Shown: in pieces, positions 1,303 to 35,151 of the stretch | Layout: each line of letters opens with the position of its first letter | How positions within the stretch are numbered: the stretch's first letter is position 1 | Source: Chitinibacter sp. GC72 | GTDB lineage: Bacteria > Pseudomonadota > Gammaproteobacteria > Burkholderiales > Chitinibacteraceae | NCBI RefSeq assembly: GCF_009760905.1 | Contig: NZ_VIRW01000004.1 | Span: forward strand, 39,665 to 103,664 | DNA: 64,000 nucleotides | Direction of reading: 5' to 3' | The notes under the pieces: generated by a model | Told to the model about the DNA's origin: nothing | Database searches by the model: none | The model's input: the letters and a program-made list of their open reading frames with translations, nothing else | Program-made: the position numbers and the translations under genes

Positions 1303-1413
1303 AACGCCTGAGGGTGGCAGAACGGTATCAGCCTGATCCAGATGTCACCCACAAGGGTCGCTCACTGATTGCAGCGCAAGCCGCGGTGGGCTGAAATACT
1401 GGATTGGTGGTAC

Positions 1414-2478
1414 TCAGCCGGGCTGGCTGGCGTGTTCCAGCTCATGGGCAATCAGCCAGCGCTTGCGCTCCAGCCCGCCTGCGTAGCCGGTCAGTGAGCC
1501 ATCTTTGCCGATAATTCGATGGCAGGGAATAATAATCGCAATGCGATTGCAGCCATTGGCAGATGCCACTGCGCGCACTGCCTGTGGCTTGCCGATCACA
1601 TTGGCCTGAGCCTGATACGAAGCTGTTGTGCCATACGGCACATTGAGCAAAGCCTGCCATACCGCCTGCTGAAACGCCGTGCCCGGCGCATGAATTGCCA
1701 CCGAAAAAGTCTGCCGCGTGCCGGCAAAATACTCGTTGATTTCCTGCTCGGCCTGTCGGGTATGCCGGTTTTCCCCGGCGATGATCTTAGCTTGCAAACG
1801 GCGCTGCAGATCTTGAAACTCGGTTTCCAGCATGCGGCGGTCTACAAACTCCAGCAGACACACGCCCTGCTCGCTGGCGCAAACAAACATCGGCCCCAGC
1901 GGCGTGGTAAAGCGGTGAATCAGGATCACGGCCGAATCGCAGTTGTGCATCGGGCTCGCACCAGTGAGCTTTTTATAGGTGTAGGCAAAGCCGCTGAGTG
2001 ACTCGTAGCCGGATTCGTAAGCGGTTTCCAGCGCCCGTTTGCCGGTTTTTAATTCTTCCAGTGCGGTATTGATGCGCAGCATGCGTTGAAAAGCCTGAAA
2101 AGTCAGCCCATAGTGCTGGCCAAACCAGCGGCGCAAAATTTCCGGGCTAATTCCCTGCTGGCGCAACTGAAAGTCACTCAGTTTTTGCTTTGGATTTTGC
2201 CGCAGCAGTTGCAAAGCCTGCTCCACCTGCGGCGGTGCTGAATGCGCGTTTTCGGTAGGACGGCAAATCTTACACGGGCGGTAGCCTGCATCCAGCGCGT
2301 CTTTAAAACCGGTATAAAACTCGACATTTTCGCGCTTGGGTTTGCGGGCCCGGCAGGTGGCAATACAAAACACCGAAGTGGTTTTCACGCCAACAAAAAA
2401 GCTGCCCACATATTCGGGCGAGCGATCAAGCAAAGCCTGATAAAAGCGATCAATTTGCTCTTCATCCACTATCCGCAT
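1414..2478 (-). CDS. ada: Bifunctional Ada regulator: methylphosphotriester-DNA methyltransferase/AraC HTH fused to O6-methylguanine-DNA methyltransferase
   Basis: N-terminal Ada Zn-Cys cluster (FCIATCRARKP...CKICRP), central AraC-type HTH, C-terminal MGMT active site IPCHRIIG. Confidence 0.85.
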   Translation of the reverse strand: MRIVDEEQIDRFYQALLDRSPEYVGSFFVGVKTTSVFCIATCRARKPKRENVEFYTGFKDALDAGYRPCKICRPTENAHSAPPQVEQALQLLRQNPKQKLSDFQLRQQGISPEILRRWFGQHYGLTFQAFQRMLRINTALEELKTGKRALETAYESGYESLSGFAYTYKKLTGASPMHNCDSAVILIHRFTTPLGPMFVCASEQGVCLLEFVDRRMLETEFQDLQRRLQAKIIAGENRHTRQAEQEINEYFAGTRQTFSVAIHAPGTAFQQAVWQALLNVPYGTTASYQAQANVIGKPQAVRAVASANGCNRIAIIIPCHRIIGKDGSLTGYAGGLERKRWLIAHELEHASQPG

Positions 2479-2679
2479 TGTTAAATCCCTGTCCGAATCA
2501 CTATCACGTCAACCATATCCAGCCTAATGGATCAACAATACGGAAAACACCCGCTGCACAACAACCGAAAACTGGACAAGTATTTTTTAACGCGATATTT
2601 CCATCGTTTGGGCAGCGCCAGCTGCCTTTAGCAGAGGGCGGCAACTGACTGAAAATCAGCTTAAGTAGATGCCAAGGTA

Positions 2680-3213
2680 TTAGCGCCCCGCTGCTGGTGG
2701 CGTCTGCAATAGCGCAATAATGCGCTGCAACTGGGCATCGGGCTTGCGCTGCTGCAGTGCCTGCGCCAAAGCCAGCGCGGTTTGCTGCTGATCATTCACG
2801 CGCAGCGGGTCTGCGCCGTGCGCCAGCAAGATCGCCACTTCATCGGGCTGGCGCGCCAGAATCGACGCATGCAGCGGCAGCCAGCCCTGCGCGTCCGGCT
2901 GATTTACATCCAGCCCGCGCGCCTGCAAAAAAGCCACCAGCTCGGCTTTGTGCTGCGCGCTGGCGCGGCCCTGCACCACAAAGCCCATGCCCGCCCCTGC
3001 CTGCAGCCGGGCAATATCGTCCGTCGTACCACGCAGCTGGAAAACATAAGCGCGGCACACTTGCGCCGCAGCCGGAATCAGCAGCCCGCCTTCATCGGCG
3101 CACACCAGCGCTTGCTCGATATCCAGCCGGTGCAAGCTATAAGCCGCCCCGGCCAGATACAGCGTTGCAAGCAGGCCAACTGGTAGCAAAAGTCGTTTTT
3201 TCATGGTGAGCAT
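2680..3213 (-). CDS. Ankyrin-repeat protein with N-terminal signal peptide
   Basis: Signal peptide (MKKRLLLPVGLLATLYLAGAA) followed by ankyrin-like repeats (GLDVNQPDAQGWLPLHASILA; HGADPLRVNDQQQTALALA). Confidence 0.6.
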   Translation of the reverse strand: MLTMKKRLLLPVGLLATLYLAGAAYSLHRLDIEQALVCADEGGLLIPAAAQVCRAYVFQLRGTTDDIARLQAGAGMGFVVQGRASAQHKAELVAFLQARGLDVNQPDAQGWLPLHASILARQPDEVAILLAHGADPLRVNDQQQTALALAQALQQRKPDAQLQRIIALLQTPPAAGR

Positions 3214-3288
3214 ATCGGGCGCTCAGGTGATAGATGGTGAAGGCCAAAATCATAAATCAATGTGGCCGATTTGGGGGTTGGCCCTGCT

Positions 3289-3681
3289 TTATTCGTTTGC
3301 GGGTGTGGCGCACGCCACTGGTGGCAAAGATCGCCACCGTGATACCGCGTCAAGGACGCTGGCCGAATACGCACTGGCTACGTTGCGCAGCTGATACGGG
3401 CTTTGCGGCCCGAACGGCGCAGAATCATTGACCGCCGCCGCCAGCTGATCCAGATAGCCGCGACCAAATTGCTGATAATGGGCCAGCTCGTCGGCACTGA
3501 GCACCATCAGGAAGTCATAGCTGACCAAAGGGCTGTGGCACTGGATGTCGAGCAGTAGCTGGCCATCGTGGCTGAGTAAAAACCAGCTGTGGGCTTGGTG
3601 TTCAATCACTTGCATTTGAAAATCCGGTGATGGTTCTGGCTGGACTGCACTGATGGGGTTGGCGCTATGGTGGGTATACAT
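3289..3681 (-). CDS. Hypothetical protein
   Basis: 130-aa ORF with no recognisable motifs. The 3' part overlaps other-frame ORFs, so boundaries are uncertain. Confidence 0.3.
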   Translation of the reverse strand: MYTHHSANPISAVQPEPSPDFQMQVIEHQAHSWFLLSHDGQLLLDIQCHSPLVSYDFLMVLSADELAHYQQFGRGYLDQLAAAVNDSAPFGPQSPYQLRNVASAYSASVLDAVSRWRSLPPVACATPANE

Positions 3682-3732
3682 CCGAAAGTATTGATAATCA
3701 TGATGTTATGCACAATACATGGGCATGTATAT

Positions 3733-4617
3733 TCAGGCGCGCAGCAAATCCGCAATCATCTGCCGCGCCTGCCCCTCGTAGCCGCCGCCGAATAAATTCA
3801 CATGGTTCACGATGTGATACAAGTTATATAAAGTTTTGCGCTGCGCATAGCCCGCATCAATCGGCCACGCGGCGTGATAGGCGGCCAAAAAGCGCGAGCC
3901 AAAGCCGCCGAATAACTCGGTCATCGCCAAGTCGCATTCGCGGTCGCCAAAATAGCAGGCCGGATCGAACACCACCGGCGTACCGTCCGCTAGCCCCGCC
4001 GCATTGCCACTCCACAAATCGCCATGCAGCAAGCTCGGCTGTGGCGTGTAGTCGCGGAAAAATTCGGGGATTTTATCGAGTAGCTTTGCACCCGCCGCGC
4101 CAAAATCACAGCCATTTTGCCGTGCCAGCTTGAACTGCGGCAGCAATCGTTCCTCGCGCCAGAAATCAATCCAGCTATCGTGCCAGCGATTGCTTTGCGG
4201 CGTGCTGCCGATGGTGTTATCCATCTCCCAGCCAAAGCGCGGCGCACCCGCCGGAGCAATCCGATGCACGCGCGCCAAGGCTGCGCCCATCGCCGCAGGG
4301 TCGGGCGAGCCCGCCAGCGGCAAATATTCCAAAGCCAGCCACGCCGTAGCCGCCCCGCTCACCCCATGCGCCATCGGCTGCGGCACGCGCATCCCCTGCC
4401 CCAACGCCGCCAGCCCCGCCGCCTCGGCGACAAACATGTGATGCAGCGCCGCGCGATTGGTCTTCACAAAATACTGCCGCGCTGGGTTGGCGCGATCACT
4501 GATCACCAAGGCCTGATTAATACAGCCGCCCCCCACGCTGCGCTGTTGCTTCACGTGAAACACCGCGCCAGTGGTGGCGGAGATGGCGGATTCGAGGTCG
4601 GAAATCAAATGAGGCAT
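3733..4617 (-). CDS. Fructosamine/ketosamine-3-kinase family protein
   Basis: Kinase-like fold with HGDLWSGN catalytic-loop motif and the DP.CYFGDRE.DLA motif typical of FN3K. Probable start MPHLISDL (ORF track extends to 4743). Confidence 0.75.
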   Translation of the reverse strand: MPHLISDLESAISATTGAVFHVKQQRSVGGGCINQALVISDRANPARQYFVKTNRAALHHMFVAEAAGLAALGQGMRVPQPMAHGVSGAATAWLALEYLPLAGSPDPAAMGAALARVHRIAPAGAPRFGWEMDNTIGSTPQSNRWHDSWIDFWREERLLPQFKLARQNGCDFGAAGAKLLDKIPEFFRDYTPQPSLLHGDLWSGNAAGLADGTPVVFDPACYFGDRECDLAMTELFGGFGSRFLAAYHAAWPIDAGYAQRKTLYNLYHIVNHVNLFGGGYEGQARQMIADLLRA

Positions 4618-4798: not shown

Positions 4799-5185
4799 AT
4801 GAAAAGTAATCCAGTTGCTTGGTTTGAAATTTATGTTCAAGACATGCCCCGTGCCAAGGCATTTTACGAATCGGTATTCCAAGGCTCATTGGAGGAATTA
4901 AAGAATCCTGATCCCGAAGGGTTTCCTGAGATGGAAATGTGGGCATTTCCAATGTCAATGGAAGACTCTGGTGCCGCTGGCGCACTCGTAAAAATGGCGG
5001 GCTGCCCATCTGGCGGCAGCACGATGGTTTATTTCGCGTGTGAGGATTGTGCCGTGGAGGCCGCACGAGCAGCTGCCAATGGCGGCGAAATCTTCAAGCA
5101 CAAAATGTCGATTGGCGAGCATGGCTTTATCGCGATGGTGGTCGATACCGAAGGCAATATGATTGGCCTTCATTCAATGCAATAA
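4799..5185 (+). CDS. VOC/glyoxalase-bleomycin resistance family protein
   Basis: Motif NPVAWFEIYVQDMPRAKAFYESVFQ is typical of PhnB/VOC proteins. The ORF track starts at 4775; MKSNPVAWFEI is the likely start. Confidence 0.7.
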   Translation: MKSNPVAWFEIYVQDMPRAKAFYESVFQGSLEELKNPDPEGFPEMEMWAFPMSMEDSGAAGALVKMAGCPSGGSTMVYFACEDCAVEAARAAANGGEIFKHKMSIGEHGFIAMVVDTEGNMIGLHSMQ

Positions 5186-5207
5186 GTGGGATCGTAAAGT
5201 CTCGTCG

Positions 5208-5262
5208 GGCGGGTTAGCCGAAGGCGCGCCCCAAACGAAGTCCCCTTGGGGGATAACCCGCC
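5208..5262. repeat. 55-bp GC-rich self-complementary element (left copy), ends GGCGGGTTA...TAACCCGCC
   Basis: Sequence ggcgggttagccgaaggcgcgccccaaacgaagtccccttgggggataacccgcc. Its inner part is the reverse complement of the copy at 8302-8357 (~93% identity). Confidence 0.8.
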
Positions 5263-5361
5263 AATGAGCATGCGATTCAATAGCACCGATCAGCGCAGGT
5301 CGCTACTGCCCTATTCGGCTTCTCGGGCATGGCTATCTATACCCAGTTCTCGCATTTGTTC

Positions 5362-5392
5362 CCCCCTTCGCCGAAGGGGGGCTAGGGGGATT
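5362..5392. repeat. GC-rich hairpin (REP-like): ccccccttcgccgaagggggg
   Basis: Perfect 10-bp stem ccccccttcg/cgaagggggg seen directly in the sequence. Confidence 0.6.
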
Positions 5393-5757
5393 TCTGCACT
5401 TATTTATGCTGCTGCGGTGTCGTTACACGAATAAATCTTAATGGCTGGCGTTGTAGCGCCTGAATTGAAATCCATTCTGGGATTGATCATGCCCACAATG
5501 GGTTTTTGTTTGCTTGCTGGTAGCCATTCTCAATGAGGCTGGTGCGAGTTATTGGCGCGGGATTTTTTGAAAGGAAGCGATGGATTCGGCTTAAGAATAA
5601 TCAGAAATCACTTTAAATTTAGCTGACATACGGTAGTTGGATCGGTACGATATCAGCACGTCATCAGGGCAAAAATACATCAGTGGGTATGGGGTGGCAG
5701 CCGATAATCGATATGGCCTTCAGCGACATACCCCTTAAATCAAGTCTGGATCGCAAA

Positions 5758-6105
5758 ATGAGAAAAATCCTATTGCTGATTGCATTACTCGCGATGGCCA
5801 GCGCCCAAGCTGGCGTGGTCGAGCAAACCACCCGCGAAGCTGGGCGCGGTTTTGCCAAGGGCATAAACGAAGGAACAGCGCAAGCATTTGAAAAAATGCT
5901 CGATAACAACGACAAACGAATGAAACAAAACGCAGCGGACGCCAAACGCAAGCAGCGTTTGGCGAATATTAGTGGCTGCGCGACCAATGCGAAGCGTACT
6001 TCATGCAAGTGCTTTGATAAGCAGGGATCGATTGAGACGATTCTGGATGAGAAGCAGTGTATGGAAGTGGTGAATCGCGGGTTGGCGGCAGTGAATGATT
6101 TTTAA
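5758..6105 (+). CDS. Small secreted/periplasmic protein (signal peptide, 4 Cys), first gene of island operon
   Basis: MRKILLLIALLAMASAQA signal peptide, then a Lys/Asn-rich mature region with CATNAKRTSCKCFDKQG...C. AT-rich codon usage. The ORF track starts at 5683. Confidence 0.5.
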   Translation: MRKILLLIALLAMASAQAGVVEQTTREAGRGFAKGINEGTAQAFEKMLDNNDKRMKQNAADAKRKQRLANISGCATNAKRTSCKCFDKQGSIETILDEKQCMEVVNRGLAAVNDF

Positions 6106-6128
6106 AGTGATTCTGGGATAGCGAGTGA

Positions 6129-7223
6129 ATGAAACGACTAAGTAGGTGTAATAAACAAAGATTAATCCGTTTGGCAAAAATTAGAGCTAATCACAAGAGT
6201 TCTAGAATAAAGAAAAAAGTATTAATTGGCTACATACTCAATGGTACTGGTTTTGCTAAAAAGAAAAGAAGCTCTTATGTTACTGTGAAAATTGTGGCTC
6301 CAATATCATTTAACTTGTATCAGGCCGCACGTAGGCAAAATTTAATAGTTTTTATTGATGAGATAAAAAGAGCGATTAAAGCAAATGCTTCAATCAGAAT
6401 AGATTTTAGTCATGTAAAGAGATTGAATCCGTGTGGTACAATTTTATTTATTGCTGAATTAATGAGGATTATTGAGCTGAAAGGCAATAAACAGCGGGTT
6501 ACTTGTACTTTGCCGAAAGATAAGATTGTTGAGCAGCTATTTAAACATGTAGGTATTTTAGACTTACTTGGTTGCAGAAGTAATGTTGTTGTTCAGCATG
6601 AAACAGTAAAACACTGGACTTTATGTAAAGGAGATCTTGTTGATTTGTCTGGGTTAAAAAGCTTAAAAGATAAGTTAGATATTGAATTGGGTGAAGAAAG
6701 AAGTTTTGCATTATTCACAGGCATACAAGAAGCGATTACTAATACGGTTCATCATGCATATATTGAGGAACGTGGAGATGGCTTCGATGCATCAAGTAAA
6801 AAATGGTTCCTTTTTGCAAAGCACATGGAAGGTCAGGTATCATTAGCAATCTGTGACTTAGGCATCGGGATTCGTCGATCATTGCCGAGAAAAATGCCAT
6901 GGCCAAAACAAATTTTTGATGAAACGCTTGAAAAGTTGGGTGCAAATACAGATCTCGATGCTAAGCACATAAAGGCGGCAATTATGTTGGGTGCAACCAG
7001 AACAGGACTTAGTAATCGAGGGAAAGGTTTACATGACATGAAACATGTTGCGAGCTTGTGTGAGAATGGCCGTTTGGATATATTGAGTAATAAGGGTGTT
7101 TACCGCTTTAGCAAGAAAATAAACTCTGAAATTATTCTTGACCATAAAAGTAATATCCAAGGCACTATTGTGCAATGGGGATTTAATACAAGTGATTATT
7201 TAGGATCAGAAAATGCTGATTAA
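6129..7223 (+). CDS. GHKL-superfamily ATPase / RsbW-SpoIIAB-like Ser/Thr kinase domain protein with unknown N-terminal domain
   Basis: C-terminal half carries N-box GIQEAITNTVHHAY (compare RsbW EAVTNAIIHGY), G1-box LAICDLGIGIRRS and G2-box SNRGKGLHDM. The N-terminal ~190 aa have no recognisable motif. Confidence 0.7.
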   Translation: MKRLSRCNKQRLIRLAKIRANHKSSRIKKKVLIGYILNGTGFAKKKRSSYVTVKIVAPISFNLYQAARRQNLIVFIDEIKRAIKANASIRIDFSHVKRLNPCGTILFIAELMRIIELKGNKQRVTCTLPKDKIVEQLFKHVGILDLLGCRSNVVVQHETVKHWTLCKGDLVDLSGLKSLKDKLDIELGEERSFALFTGIQEAITNTVHHAYIEERGDGFDASSKKWFLFAKHMEGQVSLAICDLGIGIRRSLPRKMPWPKQIFDETLEKLGANTDLDAKHIKAAIMLGATRTGLSNRGKGLHDMKHVASLCENGRLDILSNKGVYRFSKKINSEIILDHKSNIQGTIVQWGFNTSDYLGSENAD

Positions 7224-7533
7224 TATAGCTAAGGATTTTTCACCATTTGCTGCTGGTCGTTATCAGACTGATGGGCCCTGCTCTGGTGAAGCTTTTCGAG
7301 ATTTAGTTCTTGTTCCTAAACTTGAGCAACATAAAATGGAATTGGTGACTGTTAATTTAGATGGCACACTAGGTTTAGGTTCATCTTTTTTGGAGGAAGC
7401 ATTTGGTGGCTTGATCAGAAAGGGATTTAAGAAAGATTATTTACACTCCTATTTGATAATTGAGTGTAAACATCAATCTTATGTTGATGCCGCATGGTCA
7501 TATATCGATGGTGCAAATAATGATGGAAAATAG
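7213..7533 (+). CDS. STAS-like (DUF4325-type) small protein, putative antagonist/partner of the GHKL kinase
   Basis: 106 aa, overlaps the upstream gene by 11 nt. Motif LVTVNLDGTLGLGSSFLEEAFGGL resembles STAS-like DUF4325 proteins that occur next to HATPase_c proteins. Confidence 0.6.
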   Translation: MLINIAKDFSPFAAGRYQTDGPCSGEAFRDLVLVPKLEQHKMELVTVNLDGTLGLGSSFLEEAFGGLIRKGFKKDYLHSYLIIECKHQSYVDAAWSYIDGANNDGK

Positions 7534-8035
7534 TTGGTTTGATTTATATCGCTCTGTGATTGCACCTACTATTGCTATTGTCTTGGTTGTTATTGGATGG
7601 TTATTGGTTTCTAGAGACAATAATAGACGTGAGTTGAGAAAAGAGCTTAGAGGTATTTCATCCGAAATAGGTAAATTAGGCGAAGTTCTTTCGGAAAAGT
7701 GTTATCAATATTTCTCATCTGTAGAGGATGAAGATAAAAGATATCAGCTGGCTTTCGAAATTAAGACGGTTTTGGATAAAATTGAAACGAGTTTTTGTGG
7801 TATGTCAAAAATCAATAAAAACTTCAAAAATGAGTTTCTGGTTTTGAATTTGAGGGGTGCGGTTACTAATAACCAGTTTTTTGAGACGGCTAACTTTAAA
7901 CGACTTGATGCTCGTGATCAGATTCATTTGAATATTAAATTGAAAATTAAAGATATTGAAACTCATATTGACGAGGTTATTTTAAGAACGTATGTGATCA
8001 ATGGTGTAAGAGATTTTTTCTCTTTTTCAAACTGA
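7522..8035 (+). CDS. Membrane-anchored hypothetical protein (single N-terminal TM helix, coiled-coil/Lys-rich cytoplasmic part)
   Basis: ATG overlaps the stop of the previous gene (aATGAtggaaaatag). TM helix VIAPTIAIVLVVIGWLLV. The ORF track frame starts at 7460, but MMENSW at 7522 is the coupled start. Confidence 0.55.
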
Positions 8036-8104
8036 TGTTTACCTGCTGGTATTCTGTACAGACGCACAGAATCAATTTGAATCCAACATCCAATGCGATG
8101 TATG

Positions 8105-8128
8105 AACCGCCAGTCATGGCGGTTTTTC
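8105..8128 (+). terminator. Rho-independent terminator closing the island operon
   Basis: aaccgcca-gtca-tggcggtt followed by tttttc, 70 nt after the 8035 stop. Confidence 0.7.
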
Positions 8129-8301
8129 TTTGCTTGTAGTTTGTGATCAGGCAGCCCGAGTTCGACTGTTGGCGACGTAAATCCTTGATTTTATTAAGAG
8201 CTGTTTTAAAACGTGCCACTACATTACCCAGAATTTCGTATCTTTTTGATTCTTATACGGATTTTAAAAAAGATTGTTATTCGTGAGTGCTCGGGCTGAA
8301 T

Positions 8302-8357
8302 GGCGGGTTATCCCCCGAGGGGACTTCCTTTGGGGCGCGCCTTCGGCTAACCACGCC
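8302..8357. repeat. 56-bp GC-rich self-complementary element (right copy, inverted relative to 5208-5262)
   Basis: Sequence ggcgggttatcccccgaggggacttcctttggggcgcgccttcggctaaccacgcc is the reverse complement of the left copy with ~4 mismatches. Confidence 0.8.
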
Positions 8358-8584
8358 CTACCGCTTTCTTATTTGCCGGTGGTGTGTGGGTGGGGCTAGG
8401 GTTGTTTCTTGTTAAAGCACTGGTGGGTATTGGCTTGTAGCTATTTATCTATATGTCTTGCATGGCTATACCCTGGGTTGCTGTGTTGGCTGTTGCGGTG
8501 TGGCGGCGTCAATCTGTTTGGGCAAGGTGGTGCGCGTGATACGGCGTAGGATGTATCGCCGCAGGCAAAGACATTCTCTAAGGC

Positions 8585-8638
8585 ATGCCTGCTGCCACTT
8601 GGCGTATCGCGCTGCGCGTTCAATGCTCCCTGCCGTGC
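8585..8638. repeat. Intergenic repeat family copy R1 (~50-75 bp)
   Basis: tgctgccacttggcgtatcgcgctgcgcgttcaatgctccctgccgtgc aligns with copies at 9619-9692 and 10195-10271. It ends 1 nt before the stop codon of the 8639..9511 gene. Confidence 0.65.
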
Positions 8639-9511
8639 TTAGGCAAACACCGATAGATTGCCGCTGCTGGCTAGGCTGGCTAGGCTGGCTTCGCCGCTGG
8701 CGCTGTAGATTGCGCCGCCTTGCTGTATCGCAATTTGCGCTTGCTCATCGGCCACGCTGGCTTCGGCTTTTTGTACCGCTTCTGTGATGTCCTGCAGGCT
8801 TTTTTTGGCCGCGCGCAGCTCGCGCTGATCCATTTCGGTTTTGAGCTGGCGGTTTTCCATGGCCAGCAATTGCTTCAGTTTGTTGCTCAGCTTTTTCACT
8901 TCGGCAAAAAATTCCTTATCACCCGCATCACCTGCCCCACCTGGCCGCCGCTCTGCCGGGCTTTGTGTGCCATCGGCGCGCTGGCTGTCGGTTTTCTCGG
9001 TGGATTTTTCGCCGGATGGTTCGCTGTGTGTTGCGCTGGTTTTTTCGTCGCTGCTGGTTTGCTCGCTGGCTGATGTGCTGCTTTCTGCCAACTCGGCGGC
9101 TGCGCTGGCTGGCTCGCTGCCCGCTTGCCCGGCGGTGGCGCTCTGGCTGGTATTGCTTGTGTTGCTGGCGCTGTCACTGGCGGTCATGCTCGCGCCTGCG
9201 CTGCCGCCGTATTGCGCCACCAGCGCTTTGAGCTCTTTGGCCAGCTCGGCCACCAGGCGCGGATTGCCTTTGCCGATGCCAGCAAAGCGCATCATGTTTT
9301 CAATCCGCTGTTTGAGTTCGGCCATGCGGGCTTTGGCGGCGCTTTTGCGGTCTTGCACGGCTTGGGTGTTGATCTCTTTTGCGCGCGAGAAAAAATCGAG
9401 CCCAATTAGCTTGGCCCCACCTTTTTCGCCCTGCTGCCGGGTATCGCGCTGATTGTCGGGCCGGGCAAGCTGGGTGAGCAAGGGCTTGAGCTGGAATTGG
9501 ATCGGGTTCAT
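8639..9511 (-). CDS. Hypothetical protein with Ser/Thr/Ala-rich low-complexity centre and coiled-coil ends
   Basis: 290-aa ORF with N- and C-terminal predicted coiled coils and a central S/T/A/E-rich linker. No catalytic motifs. Confidence 0.5.
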   Translation of the reverse strand: MNPIQFQLKPLLTQLARPDNQRDTRQQGEKGGAKLIGLDFFSRAKEINTQAVQDRKSAAKARMAELKQRIENMMRFAGIGKGNPRLVAELAKELKALVAQYGGSAGASMTASDSASNTSNTSQSATAGQAGSEPASAAAELAESSTSASEQTSSDEKTSATHSEPSGEKSTEKTDSQRADGTQSPAERRPGGAGDAGDKEFFAEVKKLSNKLKQLLAMENRQLKTEMDQRELRAAKKSLQDITEAVQKAEASVADEQAQIAIQQGGAIYSASGEASLASLASSGNLSVFA

Positions 9512-9618: not shown

Positions 9619-9692
9619 AATAAGCGCAACCACCGTTTGCCTGGCTGCCACTGGGCGTATTGCGTTTCGCGTTCAATATTCCCTACCGTGCC
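9619..9692. repeat. Intergenic repeat family copy R2
   Basis: aataagcgcaaccaccgtttgcctggctgccactgggcgtattgcgtttcgcgttcaatattccctaccgtgcc is ~80% identical to R3. Confidence 0.7.
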
Positions 9693-10194: not shown

Positions 10195-10271
10195 ATAAGC
10201 GCCACTGCCGTTTGCTTGGTCGCCACTGGGTGTATTGCCGCGTTGCGTCGAATACCCCCTACCTTTCTGCC
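10195..10271. repeat. Intergenic repeat family copy R3
   Basis: aataagcgccactgccgtttgcttggtcgccactgggtgtattgccgcgttgcgtcgaataccccctacctttctgcc. Confidence 0.7.
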
Positions 10272-10415: not shown

Positions 10416-12005
10416 TTATTCCTCCGCCTCCAGCTCGCCAAACAAATCCGGCTGGGTTTGGCTGGGGGTGATTCGTTGGGTTTTGCGGCGTTGGCCGTGG
10501 CGGGCTGGGCTGCGGCTGCCGTGTTTTTGGTAGACGGCTTTGGCTTGTTCGCGCAGTTGGGGCTGGCTGCGCCGCCAGTCGCTAATTTTTTGCTTGGCGG
10601 CGTGCAGCGAGGTTTGCCAATCTACCACCGGCCACGGATAGTCGCGGCCGAGGATGCAGCCGGCTTCTAATTGAATCGCCGGCGGCATTTGCCATGGCTC
10701 GAAGATGCACCAGTCGGGCACGCGGCGTAGCGCGGGTAGCCAGTGGCGGACAAATGCGCCGCGAGGGTCGTGTTCCTGGGCTTGTTTGATCGGGTTGTAA
10801 ATGCGCAGCGTGTTGATGCCGGTGACGCCCGATTGCATTTGCACTTGCGGGTAATGAATGCCCGGCTCGTAGTCGAGAAACAGCCGCGCTAGCCGGGCGG
10901 CGGGTTGTGGCCAGTGTAGCCATAGGTTGTAGCTGGCAAAGCTGACCAGCATGGCGCGCATGCGAAAATTGATCCAGCCGGTGTGGCGCAGCATGGCCAT
11001 GCTGGCGTCGATCAGCGGGTAGCCGGTTTCGCCATTGGCCCAGGCCTGAAAATGCGCGCGGTTGAAGTCGGCTTCGCGCAGGCCGGCGTAGCCTGCGTGC
11101 TGCGGGGCGATTTCCAGCTCGGGCTCGCTTTCGAGTTTTTGCATGAAATGGCAATGCCAGTGCAGCCGGCTTTCAAAGCTGCGCAGCGAGGTGCGCCAAC
11201 GCTGCTCGGCGGCTTGTTCGGGCGATAATTGCGCGACGCGCCGCCGCGTGGCTTGCACAATTTCGCGCAGCGATAGACAGCCAAAGCTCAGGTACGGCGA
11301 TAGCCGCGAGCAGGCCGATACGGCTTTGAGCGGGCTGGAAATGCCGCCGCGATATTGTCCGCCGCGCTCGAATAAAAACGCCTGCAGCGTGGCCACCGCA
11401 GCGCGCCGGCCGCCGTGCTGGCGGGCGGCAAAGTCGCTGTCCCACAGCCGCAGCGGGATTTGGTCGATTTGCTCAATCGTCGGGTGCGGCCAGTGCGCTA
11501 GCGCGGCGTCTTGGGCGCTGGTGACTTTGGGCGCGGTAGCGGCGGCGAGGCGCTCGCTCCAGTAGCCATGCCAGTGGTCGCGATTGCGTAGCCGACGCAC
11601 TACGCCATTTTGTGGCCATTCTTGCCACGGTAGGCCTTGCTGCCGACACCAGTCGCCCACTGCGCGATCACGCGCAAAGCTTGCCAGATTGCCGGTTTCT
11701 TCATGCGAATACAGCCCCGCCAGCGGCACTTGGCTGTGCAGCCATTGCAAGGCATCGCGCATTTCGCCATGAAATAGATACAACCGCAGCCCGCAGCGCT
11801 GCAGATCATGCGCCAGCTCTTGCAGACATTCGCGCGCAAACCCCCAATGGCCTGCGCTGTAGTCGGGCTGGCTTTGCTGGCTAGGCTCGATGCAATACAA
11901 CGCCAACACCGGCCCACGCTGGCTGGCTTGCCACAGGGGCCAGTGATCATGCAGGCGCAGGTCTTTTTTAAACCAGACCAGATGGATGGGGGTATTGATG
12001 GGCAT
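10416..12005 (-). CDS. Cryptochrome/deoxyribodipyrimidine photolyase family protein
   Basis: N-terminal photolyase alpha/beta domain (IHLVWFKKDLRLHDHWPL) and FAD-binding domain (TG.P..DA.MR.L..TGW..NR.R). Unusual basic C-terminal tail. Confidence 0.8.
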   Translation of the reverse strand: MPINTPIHLVWFKKDLRLHDHWPLWQASQRGPVLALYCIEPSQQSQPDYSAGHWGFARECLQELAHDLQRCGLRLYLFHGEMRDALQWLHSQVPLAGLYSHEETGNLASFARDRAVGDWCRQQGLPWQEWPQNGVVRRLRNRDHWHGYWSERLAAATAPKVTSAQDAALAHWPHPTIEQIDQIPLRLWDSDFAARQHGGRRAAVATLQAFLFERGGQYRGGISSPLKAVSACSRLSPYLSFGCLSLREIVQATRRRVAQLSPEQAAEQRWRTSLRSFESRLHWHCHFMQKLESEPELEIAPQHAGYAGLREADFNRAHFQAWANGETGYPLIDASMAMLRHTGWINFRMRAMLVSFASYNLWLHWPQPAARLARLFLDYEPGIHYPQVQMQSGVTGINTLRIYNPIKQAQEHDPRGAFVRHWLPALRRVPDWCIFEPWQMPPAIQLEAGCILGRDYPWPVVDWQTSLHAAKQKISDWRRSQPQLREQAKAVYQKHGSRSPARHGQRRKTQRITPSQTQPDLFGELEAEE

Positions 12006-13617: not shown

Positions 13618-14143
13618 GATTTATCCTTTGGGTATTGGCTTGAAGGCTAGTTTGAGGTTGCTCTGCAGGGCAATACCCTGATTTTTTGGCAATGTTCTCA
13701 ATTCGAGTTGATTGTTTTTAGCGCCTTCGGCGCGATGTTTTACAGTCGCAATCCGCGACGGGGACTCACTTTCTTTGCTTCGCCAAGAGAAGGTAAGCAA
13801 GAGAAGGCGACCCCCGCCTGCGGCCCTCCGGGCTATAAGCCTTAGGCCACGGTCTACGCTAAGGCAACAAGTTGCCAAGCTCCGCCACGCCTCGGTCGGT
13901 CGCGAGCCAAACGATAAAGCCATTTGTCTCGCTCCACTCCCTCGGCGATGGGCGACAGGGGATTTTAAGCCCCAGATCCAGCAGCGCAGCTCGGATCAAC
14001 ACGTATTGAGAACATCACCATTTCCTAGCGGGCTGCTTGATCGGTGTTGAGGTGCTTGATTCATCACTGTGCTAGCTTTTTCTCACATCAAGGACATCGG
14101 GGAACAGCCATAAGCCGACCCTCAACACCGCCGTATTGCCTGC

Positions 14144-34826: not shown

Positions 34827-34899
34827 TGGGTCGGGAGGGATTCGAACCCTCGACCAACGGATTAAAAGTCCGCTGCTCTACCGACTGAGCTACCGACCC
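34827..34899 (-). tRNA. tRNA-Lys (anticodon TTT)
   Basis: rc: GGGTCGGTAGCTCAGTCGGTAGAGCAGCGGACTTTTAATCCGTTGGTCGAGGGTTCGAATCCCTCCCGACCCA. Canonical cloverleaf; CCA not encoded. Confidence 0.9.
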
Positions 34900-34911
34900 A
34901 GAGGTCTTGTG

Positions 34912-34984
34912 TGTGCGATGGTGGGTCGGGAGGGATTCGAACCCTCGACCAACGGATTAAAAGTCCGCTGCTCTACCGACTGAG
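34912..34984 (-). tRNA. tRNA-Lys (anticodon TTT), second identical copy
   Basis: Identical 73-nt sequence, 12 nt from the first copy. Confidence 0.9.
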
Positions 34985-35151
34985 CTACCGACCCGCGTCG
35001 TCACATACAGAGATGCGCATTATAAGGTTATTTTCGCGCCTGTCAACGATTAATCTGCAGAAATTTTGCCCGGCTTTGGCATTATGCCGCGCGACTAGCC
35101 GCGCTGGCTCGCGGTAAACTACCGCCCTATTGTTGAAAAAAAGGAAAAATC

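Follow-up and report, generated by a model that had tools for sequence, protein, structure and literature searches.

What brought a block of foreign DNA into the genome of Chitinibacter sp. GC72, and what might that DNA do there? The question is raised by a 64-kb stretch of this genome (hereafter the window; all coordinates are window positions), in which two copies of a GC-rich palindromic repeat lie in inverted orientation on either side of AT-rich genes. The original prediction offered two readings of this arrangement: a cassette bounded by the terminal inverted repeats (TIRs) of a miniature inverted-repeat transposable element (MITE), or a hotspot associated with repetitive extragenic palindromic (REP) elements that had captured foreign DNA. 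We favor, with moderate confidence, an account in which the repeats are ordinary REPs, the locus is a variable one, and the cargo is an acquired phage-type gene triad that would act in the manner of the VapKSC system.

The repeats themselves provide the starting point. The arms of the inverted pair, at 5212-5269 and 8295-8352, are 58 nucleotides (nt) each, are 93% complementary, and have 3025 nt between them, so the predicted geometry of inverted repeats, ~93% identical as reverse complements and ~3.04 kb apart, is borne out. They form the sole inverted pair of this kind within the window, and each half of the element occurs exactly twice there at ≤3 mismatches, against an expectation of 0.00 from shuffled sequence. 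The element is self-complementary, folding into an outer stem of 9 bp (GGCGGGTTA/TAACCCGCC) that encloses small hairpins, and has a minimum free energy of about -30 kcal/mol; this folding energy is no better than that of dinucleotide shuffles of equal GC-rich composition (z = -0.3 to -1.4). Rfam holds no family for the element. The two copies, and the shorter element nested in each, are as follows.

5206-5290, plus strand: left REP, long form, with head GTCG, stem GGCGGGTTA...TAACCCGCC at 5208-5262, and a family-typical tail to ~5290.
8275-8358, minus strand: right REP, long form, inverted, with an outward GTAG head, a stem with one extra base (GGGCGTGG), and its tail toward the AT-rich DNA.
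5227-5253, plus strand: nested 27-nt element in the loop of the left REP (CGCCCCAAACGAAGTCCCCTTGGGGGA), exactly the surplus over the short form found in Chitinibacter sp. ZOR0017.
8311-8337, minus strand: nested 27-nt element in the right REP, one position off the metagenome consensus (CCTCGG).

REP elements are recognized by a GTAG head with a palindrome behind it, and both copies carry the conserved 5' GTAG (or GT[A/C]G) head: GTAG in the right copy, GTCG in the left. The consensus of 124 genomic copies of the family is GTAGGGCGGGTTAGCCGAAGGCGTAACCCGCC, with the flanking consensus GTAGGGCG. Its 24-nt core occurs in at least 119 genomic stretches (one genome per species) from Alpha-, Beta-, and Gammaproteobacteria; Bradyrhizobium, Rhodopseudomonas, Pseudomonas, Deefgea, Vitreoscilla, and other genera are among the matches listed, every one of which has the short form. 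Genomes often hold several copies, as in Bradyrhizobium, Deefgea (four in 8 kb of locus L064), and a Vitreoscilla metagenome-assembled genome (MAG), and two lie in the 64 kb of the host examined here. The long form is present also in Deefgea sp. CFH1-16, in two copies (L064, 3118-3175 and 4533-4590). The better of these (~4533-4590) is 88-89% identical to the window copies, with 89% for the left copy against L064 4530-4593; the window copies are 93% identical to each other. The window copies are thus hardly closer to one another than to members in another genus, which argues against a recent duplication tied to an insertion. Taken together, the window repeats are members of a dispersed REP-type family, present here in a lineage-specific long form with a 27-nt loop insert.

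Like the repeats of REP/REPIN/RAYT systems, members of this family are short, GC-rich, imperfect palindromes with a 5' GTAG head, are extragenic, are multi-copy in several lineages, and are sometimes arranged as inverted doublets. The window pair is not a REPIN, however, because its copies lie 3 kb apart and those of a REPIN tens of nucleotides apart. Two further features set the family off from known REP and REP/RAYT repeats: the window copies carry the nested 27-nt insert, and the core is conserved across three proteobacterial classes, to our knowledge an unusually broad range for a REP family.

The nested element has a distribution of its own. Specifically, the 27-mer of both REPs, CGCCCCAAAGGAAGTCCCCTTGGGGGA, recurs near-unchanged in 37 metagenome contigs (L137-L173; 55-71% GC) with unrelated flanks. 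In about one-third of these contexts the flanks are clearly complementary and the 27-mer caps a local hairpin; one such hairpin is followed by a T-run and looks terminator-like. Complementarity of the flanks is modestly enriched over that of mismatched flank pairs (p = 0.007). In four contexts the 27-mer directly adjoins another kind of REP at its CTAC end; this REP is of the GTAGGAGCGGC type, which we take to be Pseudomonas-like. No Rfam family covers the 27-mer or its metagenome contexts, and a literature search on its sequence gave no match. The 27-mer could be a mobile element of very small size or, alternatively, a conserved hairpin cap.

How much of the DNA between the repeats is foreign? 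Windowed GC content falls to 0.32-0.40 only across ~6106-8290, where the window as a whole averages 0.548; over the 0.9 kb that follow the left repeat (5263-6105), in which the first open reading frame (ORF) lies, it is ~0.50. The low GC and different codon style that had been ascribed to the whole interval therefore hold for ~6106-8290, and so for three genes, but not for 5263-6105. Similarly, the predicted four-gene codirectional operon is present as four codirectional ORFs (5758-6105, 6129-7223, 7213-7533, and 7520-8035), but only the last three form a unit: they overlap and co-travel in other genomes, and the first stands apart by its composition. We refer to these last three genes as the triad. 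Their GC content is 0.32-0.37, and their GC content at third codon positions (GC3) is 0.25-0.30; the remaining 63 ORFs called in the window have GC3 values of 0.48-0.73. The features of the segment and of the gene ahead of it are as follows.

6106-8290, plus strand: compositionally foreign segment of ~2.2 kb, GC 0.32-0.40.
5758-6105, plus strand: small secreted protein of 115 amino acids with a signal peptide; GC 0.50, GC3 0.56; host-like and outside the conserved module.
6129-7223, plus strand: gene K, 364 amino acids; basic N-terminal helix, STAS-like domain, and GHKL kinase/ATPase domain; matches phrog_3364 (E 1.4e-47); 100% identical to a hypothetical protein of Chitinibacter sp. GC72.
7213-7533, plus strand: gene S, 106 amino acids; STAS-like (DUF4325) protein matching Pfam PF14213 (E 2.1e-9), with invariant G56-S57-S58.
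7520-8035, plus strand: gene T, 171 amino acids, presumed effector; N-terminal hydrophobic segment ending GW, basic juxtamembrane stretch SRDNNRRELRKELR, and helical C-terminal part.
8104-8135, plus strand: intrinsic terminator of the operon, a 9-bp stem and 4-nt loop (8104-8125) followed by a T-run.

The foreign AT-rich DNA begins no more than 25 nt from the first triad start codon, and its right end abuts the tail of the right REP. The triad starts 23 nt past the stop of the resident 115-amino-acid gene, here without the repressor gene that usually lies upstream of it. Because it has no upstream region of its own, the triad is probably transcribed together with the resident upstream gene, and so probably from a host promoter, for which 5623-5651 is a candidate; promoter-like sites are no commoner here than in shuffled sequence. 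The 115-amino-acid protein matches no family in Pfam, PADLOC, NCBIfam, or PHROG and has no relative in any triad locus. Two further elements of the original prediction stand. First, the cargo has its own intrinsic terminator, the hairpin at 8104-8125 with its T-run. Second, it has no integrase or transposase: scans against Pfam, PADLOC, and NCBIfam find no such domain in the four ORF proteins. Four types of recombinase or transposase (P4-type integrase, DDE transposase, rve transposase, and serine recombinase) were sought across the whole window with phmmer, and none had a relative there; among the 18 ORFs examined with Pfam, which lie between 658 and 16527, mobility domains are likewise absent. 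The ~2.2 kb of AT-rich DNA at 6106-8290 was probably acquired horizontally, by a presumed insertion between the two REPs.

Comparison with relatives places this acquisition in its context. The fructosamine-kinase gene served as the synteny anchor; the VOC/glyoxalase-family gene beside the left REP was unsuitable, as its closest homologs lie in unrelated contexts. Exact-match look-ups of the VOC and kinase-like proteins of the window returned no record. The nearest genomes compared, those of Chitinibacter bivalviorum, Chitinibacter sp. ZOR0017, and Chitinibacter sp. S2-10, belong to species different from GC72, and their fructosamine kinases are 84-86% identical to that of GC72 in amino acid sequence. 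In all three, the triad side of the fructosamine-kinase gene differs and synteny breaks at the locus. Specifically, C. bivalviorum encodes a serine recombinase here, together with a DUF5906 protein and a deaminase-domain protein. The triad is lacking in ZOR0017, where the VOC gene leads into a HEPN/MNT pair and an insertion sequence, and S2-10 encodes an AAA_15 ATPase. The VOC gene is itself portable: copies 77-91% identical to it occur in many unrelated betaproteobacterial contexts, and it is kept in ZOR0017 and missing here in C. bivalviorum. Given that the relatives differ every time and that the VOC gene is portable, the locus is a variable hotspot. One VOC-bearing locus of a MAG (L001), which also has genes for BrnT/BrnA, DinB, and a methyltransferase, looks like an array of cassettes. 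On the far side of the anchor, the NmrA-like gene and the fructosamine-kinase gene are direct neighbors in C. bivalviorum and ZOR0017, but in the window they are separated by genes for an Ada-type methyltransferase regulator and an ankyrin-repeat protein and by a 130-amino-acid ORF (1303-3732); variable DNA thus flanks the kinase gene on both sides.

The left REP is resident DNA. In ZOR0017, the short-form hairpin GGGCGGGTTAGCCGAAGGCGTAACCCGCC follows the VOC gene in the same position as in the window, and the 77 nt that precede it are 97% identical to the window. The left copy of the window equals this short hairpin plus exactly 27 nt (CGCCCCAAACGAAGTCCCCTTGGGGGA) between GGCG and TAACC, without duplication. 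The left copy belongs to a resident VOC-REP unit. The original prediction had looked to relatives for an empty site with a single repeat and had named two findings that would tell against it, a ubiquitous REP and relatives carrying the same genes at the same place. The element is indeed a common REP, but the relatives do not have the same genes at the site; ZOR0017 does show the left REP without the triad. No empty site was found in the three nearest Chitinibacter genomes, all of them different species at 84-86% amino acid identity. Deefgea chitinilytica, whose photolyase is 95% identical, shares only the photolyase gene with the window.

The spacers around the triad hold further repeats. In particular, the ~850-bp interval just inside the left REP contains other small repeats and a 17-mer common to C. 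bivalviorum and ZOR0017, and a second REP-like family occupies the spacers to the right.

4799-5185, plus strand: VOC/glyoxalase-family gene (Pfam Glyoxalase, E 3.8e-6); GC 0.49; its stop lies 20 nt ahead of the left REP.
5350-5389, unstranded: small palindromic repeat CCCCCCTTCGCCGAAGGGGGG, matching two places in S2-10 (L008) at 87-97% identity.
5467-5505, unstranded: palindrome "REP4" (GAAATCCATTCTGGGATTGATCATGCCCACAATGGGTTT), found just 5' of the MNT-HEPN pair in ZOR0017 and Deefgea.
5587-5603, plus strand: conserved 17-mer CGGCTTAAGAATAATCA, 17/17 in L006 and L007; beside the kinase/VOC locus of three Chitinibacter genomes.
8591-8639, 9638-9691, and 10222-10269, unstranded: second REP-like family, in three consecutive spacers right of the island, all matching ZOR0017 (L007, 9260-9316).

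Another short repeat, at 13761-13813, occurs also in Deefgea chitinilytica (two copies in L097 and one in L119) and in ZOR0017 (L007, 5293-5345). The stretch beside the fructosamine-kinase gene is a variable accessory locus whose spacers hold several small palindromic repeat families.

These comparisons bear directly on whether 5206-8358 is a composite TIR-bounded, non-autonomous (MITE-like) transposon, moved whole by a transposase acting in trans. The 58-nt, 93% inverted repeat with its heads outward, the cargo without a transposase, and the terminator inside the unit all fit such an element. The prediction of a MITE/TIR-bounded cassette nevertheless fails on several counts, and we reject it. 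The homologous site of ZOR0017 carries the left arm in its short form but no cargo. Inward from the left repeat, ~850 bp pass before the compositional junction is reached, and the unit is thus of mixed composition. There is no target-site duplication, and the outer flanks (...AAAGTCTCGT and ACCGCTTTCTT...) share no k-mer. Comparable inverted repeats are missing from the flanks of five further cargo copies, those of Kerstersia, Achromobacter, Chromobacterium, Marinobacter phage AS1, and an Acinetobacter plasmid. Finally, the unit was found only once, and the arms are about as similar to the Deefgea REPs as to each other. We regard a transposon of this type as very improbable. The lesson for annotation is that an inverted REP pair around foreign DNA should not be taken for transposon ends unless relatives have been checked.

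The alternative offered in the original prediction, a REP-associated hotspot that captured foreign DNA, has largely held up: the REP family is widespread, the locus is variable, the AT-rich DNA ends at the right REP tail, and REPs flank cassettes in Deefgea. Do the REPs take an active part? One possibility is REP-delimited cassette exchange, in which the hairpins, perhaps together with REP4, would be recombination sites that swap promoterless cassettes (VOC, MNT-HEPN, PDZ, triad) in a manner functionally akin to attC, with a RAYT-type or other recombinase in trans. Both REP copies in the 64 kb flank the sole foreign segment, and the AT-rich DNA stops at the right REP tail. In Deefgea sp. CFH1-16 (L064, 3118-5820), a long REP, an MNT-HEPN pair, a second long REP, a low-GC pair encoding a PDZ-domain protein and a 114-amino-acid protein, and an inverted short REP follow one another. 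In ZOR0017 the order is VOC, REP, HEPN/MNT, and the HEPN proteins of ZOR0017 and Deefgea share 90% identity. Window positions 5204-5516 are collinear with the Deefgea leader from REP to MNT; no remnant of an MNT or HEPN gene is present in the window. Moreover, a REP4 half-copy (ATTCTGGGAT) sits at the left junction (6101-6119; half-site 6110-6119), and an inverted near-copy lies at 8225-8239 (half-site 8225-8234), ~55 nt before the right REP tail.

Other features do not accord with such exchange. The left compositional junction is 850 bp away from the left REP, the REP orientation is inconsistent (direct in Deefgea cassette 1, inverted in the window), and most of the Deefgea REP copies inspected lie in ordinary spacers without a GC anomaly. 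The ATTCTGGG motif is weakly enriched, with 11 matches against 5.8 expected, a number reached by 2 of 100 shuffles. The phmmer searches of the window for four recombinase and transposase types and the Pfam scan of the 18 ORFs between 658 and 16527 gave no candidate enzyme. The hairpin, furthermore, has the polarity GTT...AAC, the reverse of attC: it reads GGGTTA...TAACCC, and attC reads 5' RYYYAAC ... GTTRRRY 3', a difference on which we reject its identity as an integron attC site. No relative of a tyrosine recombinase was found in the window with phmmer, a search of limited sensitivity. We judge REP-delimited cassette exchange unlikely. More specific, and somewhat less probable in our estimation, is the notion that REP hairpins with the nested 27-mer mark cassette-exchange sites in the Chitinibacteraceae, the REP hairpins standing in the place of attC and the 27-mer being an ultra-small mobile element that targets hairpin loops. 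Most likely, the REPs are passive elements in a busy accessory locus.

What, then, did the locus acquire? The core of the cargo, 6129-8035, is a conserved triad whose genes encode a kinase with STAS and GHKL domains, a STAS-like protein of the DUF4325 type, and a small protein anchored in the membrane. The triad lies directly 3' of a Peptidase_S24 repressor gene in a Kerstersia gyiorum prophage; in Achromobacter xylosoxidans, it adjoins an integrase; it is present in Chromobacterium vaccinii; in Marinobacter phage AS1, it lies within the immunity region; and on an Acinetobacter plasmid, it sits beside a RelE/ParE pair. Its GC content is below that of its surroundings in all five of these loci, marginally so on the Acinetobacter plasmid (0.305 versus 0.321). 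In IMG/VR, 137 viral contigs encode relatives, and 80 of these contigs were kept. The STAS gene follows directly in 79 of the 80. The ORF just upstream of the triad encodes a Peptidase_S24 protein in 20 of 58 cases and an HTH_3 protein in 13 of 58. The third gene encodes a protein of ~150-190 amino acids, with an N-terminal hydrophobic segment ending GW and then a basic stretch, in 45 of the 45 loci with a called downstream ORF. The kinase family comprises ~2009 clusters (50% identity, E ≤ 1e-30). The module normally travels in temperate phages, often directly after the gene for a CI-type repressor, and NCBIfam has nothing for it.

The proteins of the triad can be described at different levels of detail. 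For K, the N-box (E201/N205), the G1 box (D243-x-G245-x-G247, with G247 nearly invariant), and the motif R297-G-K-G300 are invariant in an alignment of 82 family members. An AlphaFold2 (AF2) model of K is confident, with a predicted local distance difference test (pLDDT) score of 90.9, and Foldseek assigns the GHKL fold, with SpoIIAB giving the best target coverage (template modeling score 0.65 normalized to the target). Profile searches with the kinase domain likewise return RsbW and SpoIIAB as the best Protein Data Bank (PDB) sequence matches. The alpha/beta domain at residues 52-170 can be aligned with the STAS domain of VapK; profile comparison of the N-terminal domain of K with the DUF4325 protein was negative. 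The S protein is 39-59% identical across six loci, with an invariant GSSFLEEAFGG motif in which S57 and S58 are invariant in the 6 sequences. A PDB search with the STAS profile yielded only a marginal STAS match (E 1.1) and did not recover VapS.

The closest characterized relatives of this arrangement have been described recently. VapKSC consists of three genes, in which VapK phosphorylates VapS, and VapS then frees the PIN toxin VapC; against one phage, it protects ~100-fold. In the related system, single-stranded DNA activates the HTH-STAS-GHKL kinase CapK, whose STAS substrate is CapS (Chambers et al., EMBO J 2026, PMC13373217 for both systems). The VapK, VapS, and CapK sequences compared here are those in Appendix Table S2 of that paper. 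In hhalign, the 82-sequence K profile aligns with VapK at 93.7% (E 1.9e-7) over 239 columns that span both domains, and with CapK at 85% (E 6e-6) over 214 columns. K is homologous to both kinases, so the triad looks like VapKSC with a membrane effector replacing the PIN toxin. The gene order is the same in the two modules, as are the component types: a STAS+GHKL kinase, a small STAS protein that has a conserved serine and ends in a short extension, and an effector. The differences are equally clear. The effector of the triad is a membrane-anchored, helical protein of ~150-190 amino acids rather than the PIN-domain nuclease VapC; its kinase has an extra basic N-terminal helix; its STAS protein is of the DUF4325 type and aligns marginally with VapS (E 0.054); and it is strongly linked to prophage immunity regions. 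Because its third gene does not encode a PIN nuclease, the triad falls outside VapKSC on that defining feature. The literature searched contains no description of such a triad beyond the work of Chambers et al.

Other known systems share parts of this design. Like RsbW-RsbV and SpoIIAB-SpoIIAA, the triad pairs a GHKL serine kinase with a STAS substrate; unlike those modules, it has no sigma factor partner, it has a STAS domain on the kinase itself, its output is a membrane protein, and it is carried by mobile elements. Lambda rexAB, next to the repressor gene, is an exclusion module expressed in lysogens that pairs a cytoplasmic sensor with a membrane protein. The triad resembles the lambda cI-rexA-rexB arrangement in its position directly downstream of a prophage repressor gene and in its component types, but it has three components, and its signaling would be by a kinase.

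On the analogy with VapKSC, the triad plausibly works in the same way through a membrane effector. The notion is that the STAS protein S would keep the membrane protein T inactive. A signal of infection or of DNA damage would activate the kinase K, and activated K would phosphorylate the invariant S57 of S. Phosphorylation of S57 would free T, and freed T would damage the membrane, aborting the infection. Phosphorylation, the toxicity of T, and an anti-phage function are all drawn by analogy with the characterized system, and each is put forward here as a prediction.

Alternatively, the triad could be a regulatory device of the phage rather than an immune or toxin module. In that case, a partner-switching kinase/STAS pair would steer a membrane protein that helps to maintain lysogeny, to exclude superinfecting phage at the envelope, or to time lysis, and the copy in GC72 would be a functionless, stranded remnant of a prophage. 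The location of the triad in the immunity region beside CI-type repressors suits a regulatory role, as does the finding that no PADLOC model matched it, and the GC72 copy has neither phage genes around it nor a promoter of its own. Its three ORFs are intact, however, and the catalytic motifs are invariant. The module is also found on a plasmid beside a toxin-antitoxin pair and beside an integrase outside any prophage body, a distribution typical of portable defense or addiction modules, and VapKSC, the closest characterized relative, protects against phage. We consider a phage regulatory device of this kind rather unlikely.

Several points weigh against the account that we favor, that is, ordinary REPs in a variable locus that acquired a VapKSC-like triad. 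The insertion event and its exact junctions are read from composition alone. Both REP copies in the 64 kb sit at the island, which is unlikely under random placement, and REPs also delimit cassettes in Deefgea; a functional link between REPs and cassette turnover may therefore exist. For the triad, no PADLOC model matched its proteins, and the neighbors (Ada, the ankyrin-repeat protein, the photolyase, and an SDR) form no defense island. S57 of S aligns with the VapS phospho-site S48, but weakly (hhalign E 0.054). Finally, T matches nothing in Pfam, NCBIfam, PHROG, or PADLOC and has no detectable relative of known function, and its single-sequence AF2 model is unusable (pLDDT 44.8).

Two further observations concern the remainder of the window. 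The photolyase gene (10439-11991) is 94% identical in DNA and 95% identical in protein sequence to that of Deefgea chitinilytica LMG 24817 (L097, 3971-5520), with flanks that cannot be aligned; one other coding stretch was seen to align the window with a Deefgea genome, at ~73% identity (L015). The sequence comparison suggests that the photolyase gene alone was recently transferred. Also, two identical tandem tRNA genes, 95 nt apart, lie at 34827-34994 on the minus strand.

If the favored account of the triad is true, the kinase/STAS switch of VapKSC and CapK-CapS (2026) would also gate a membrane effector. The membrane-effector version would, moreover, be the common one in temperate phages, with ~2000 clusters (50% identity), often occupying a slot beside the repressor like that of lambda rexAB. 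A sizeable, unannotated family would thereby join the known prophage-encoded immunity systems, and it would offer a second effector type with which to study how these kinases sense infection.

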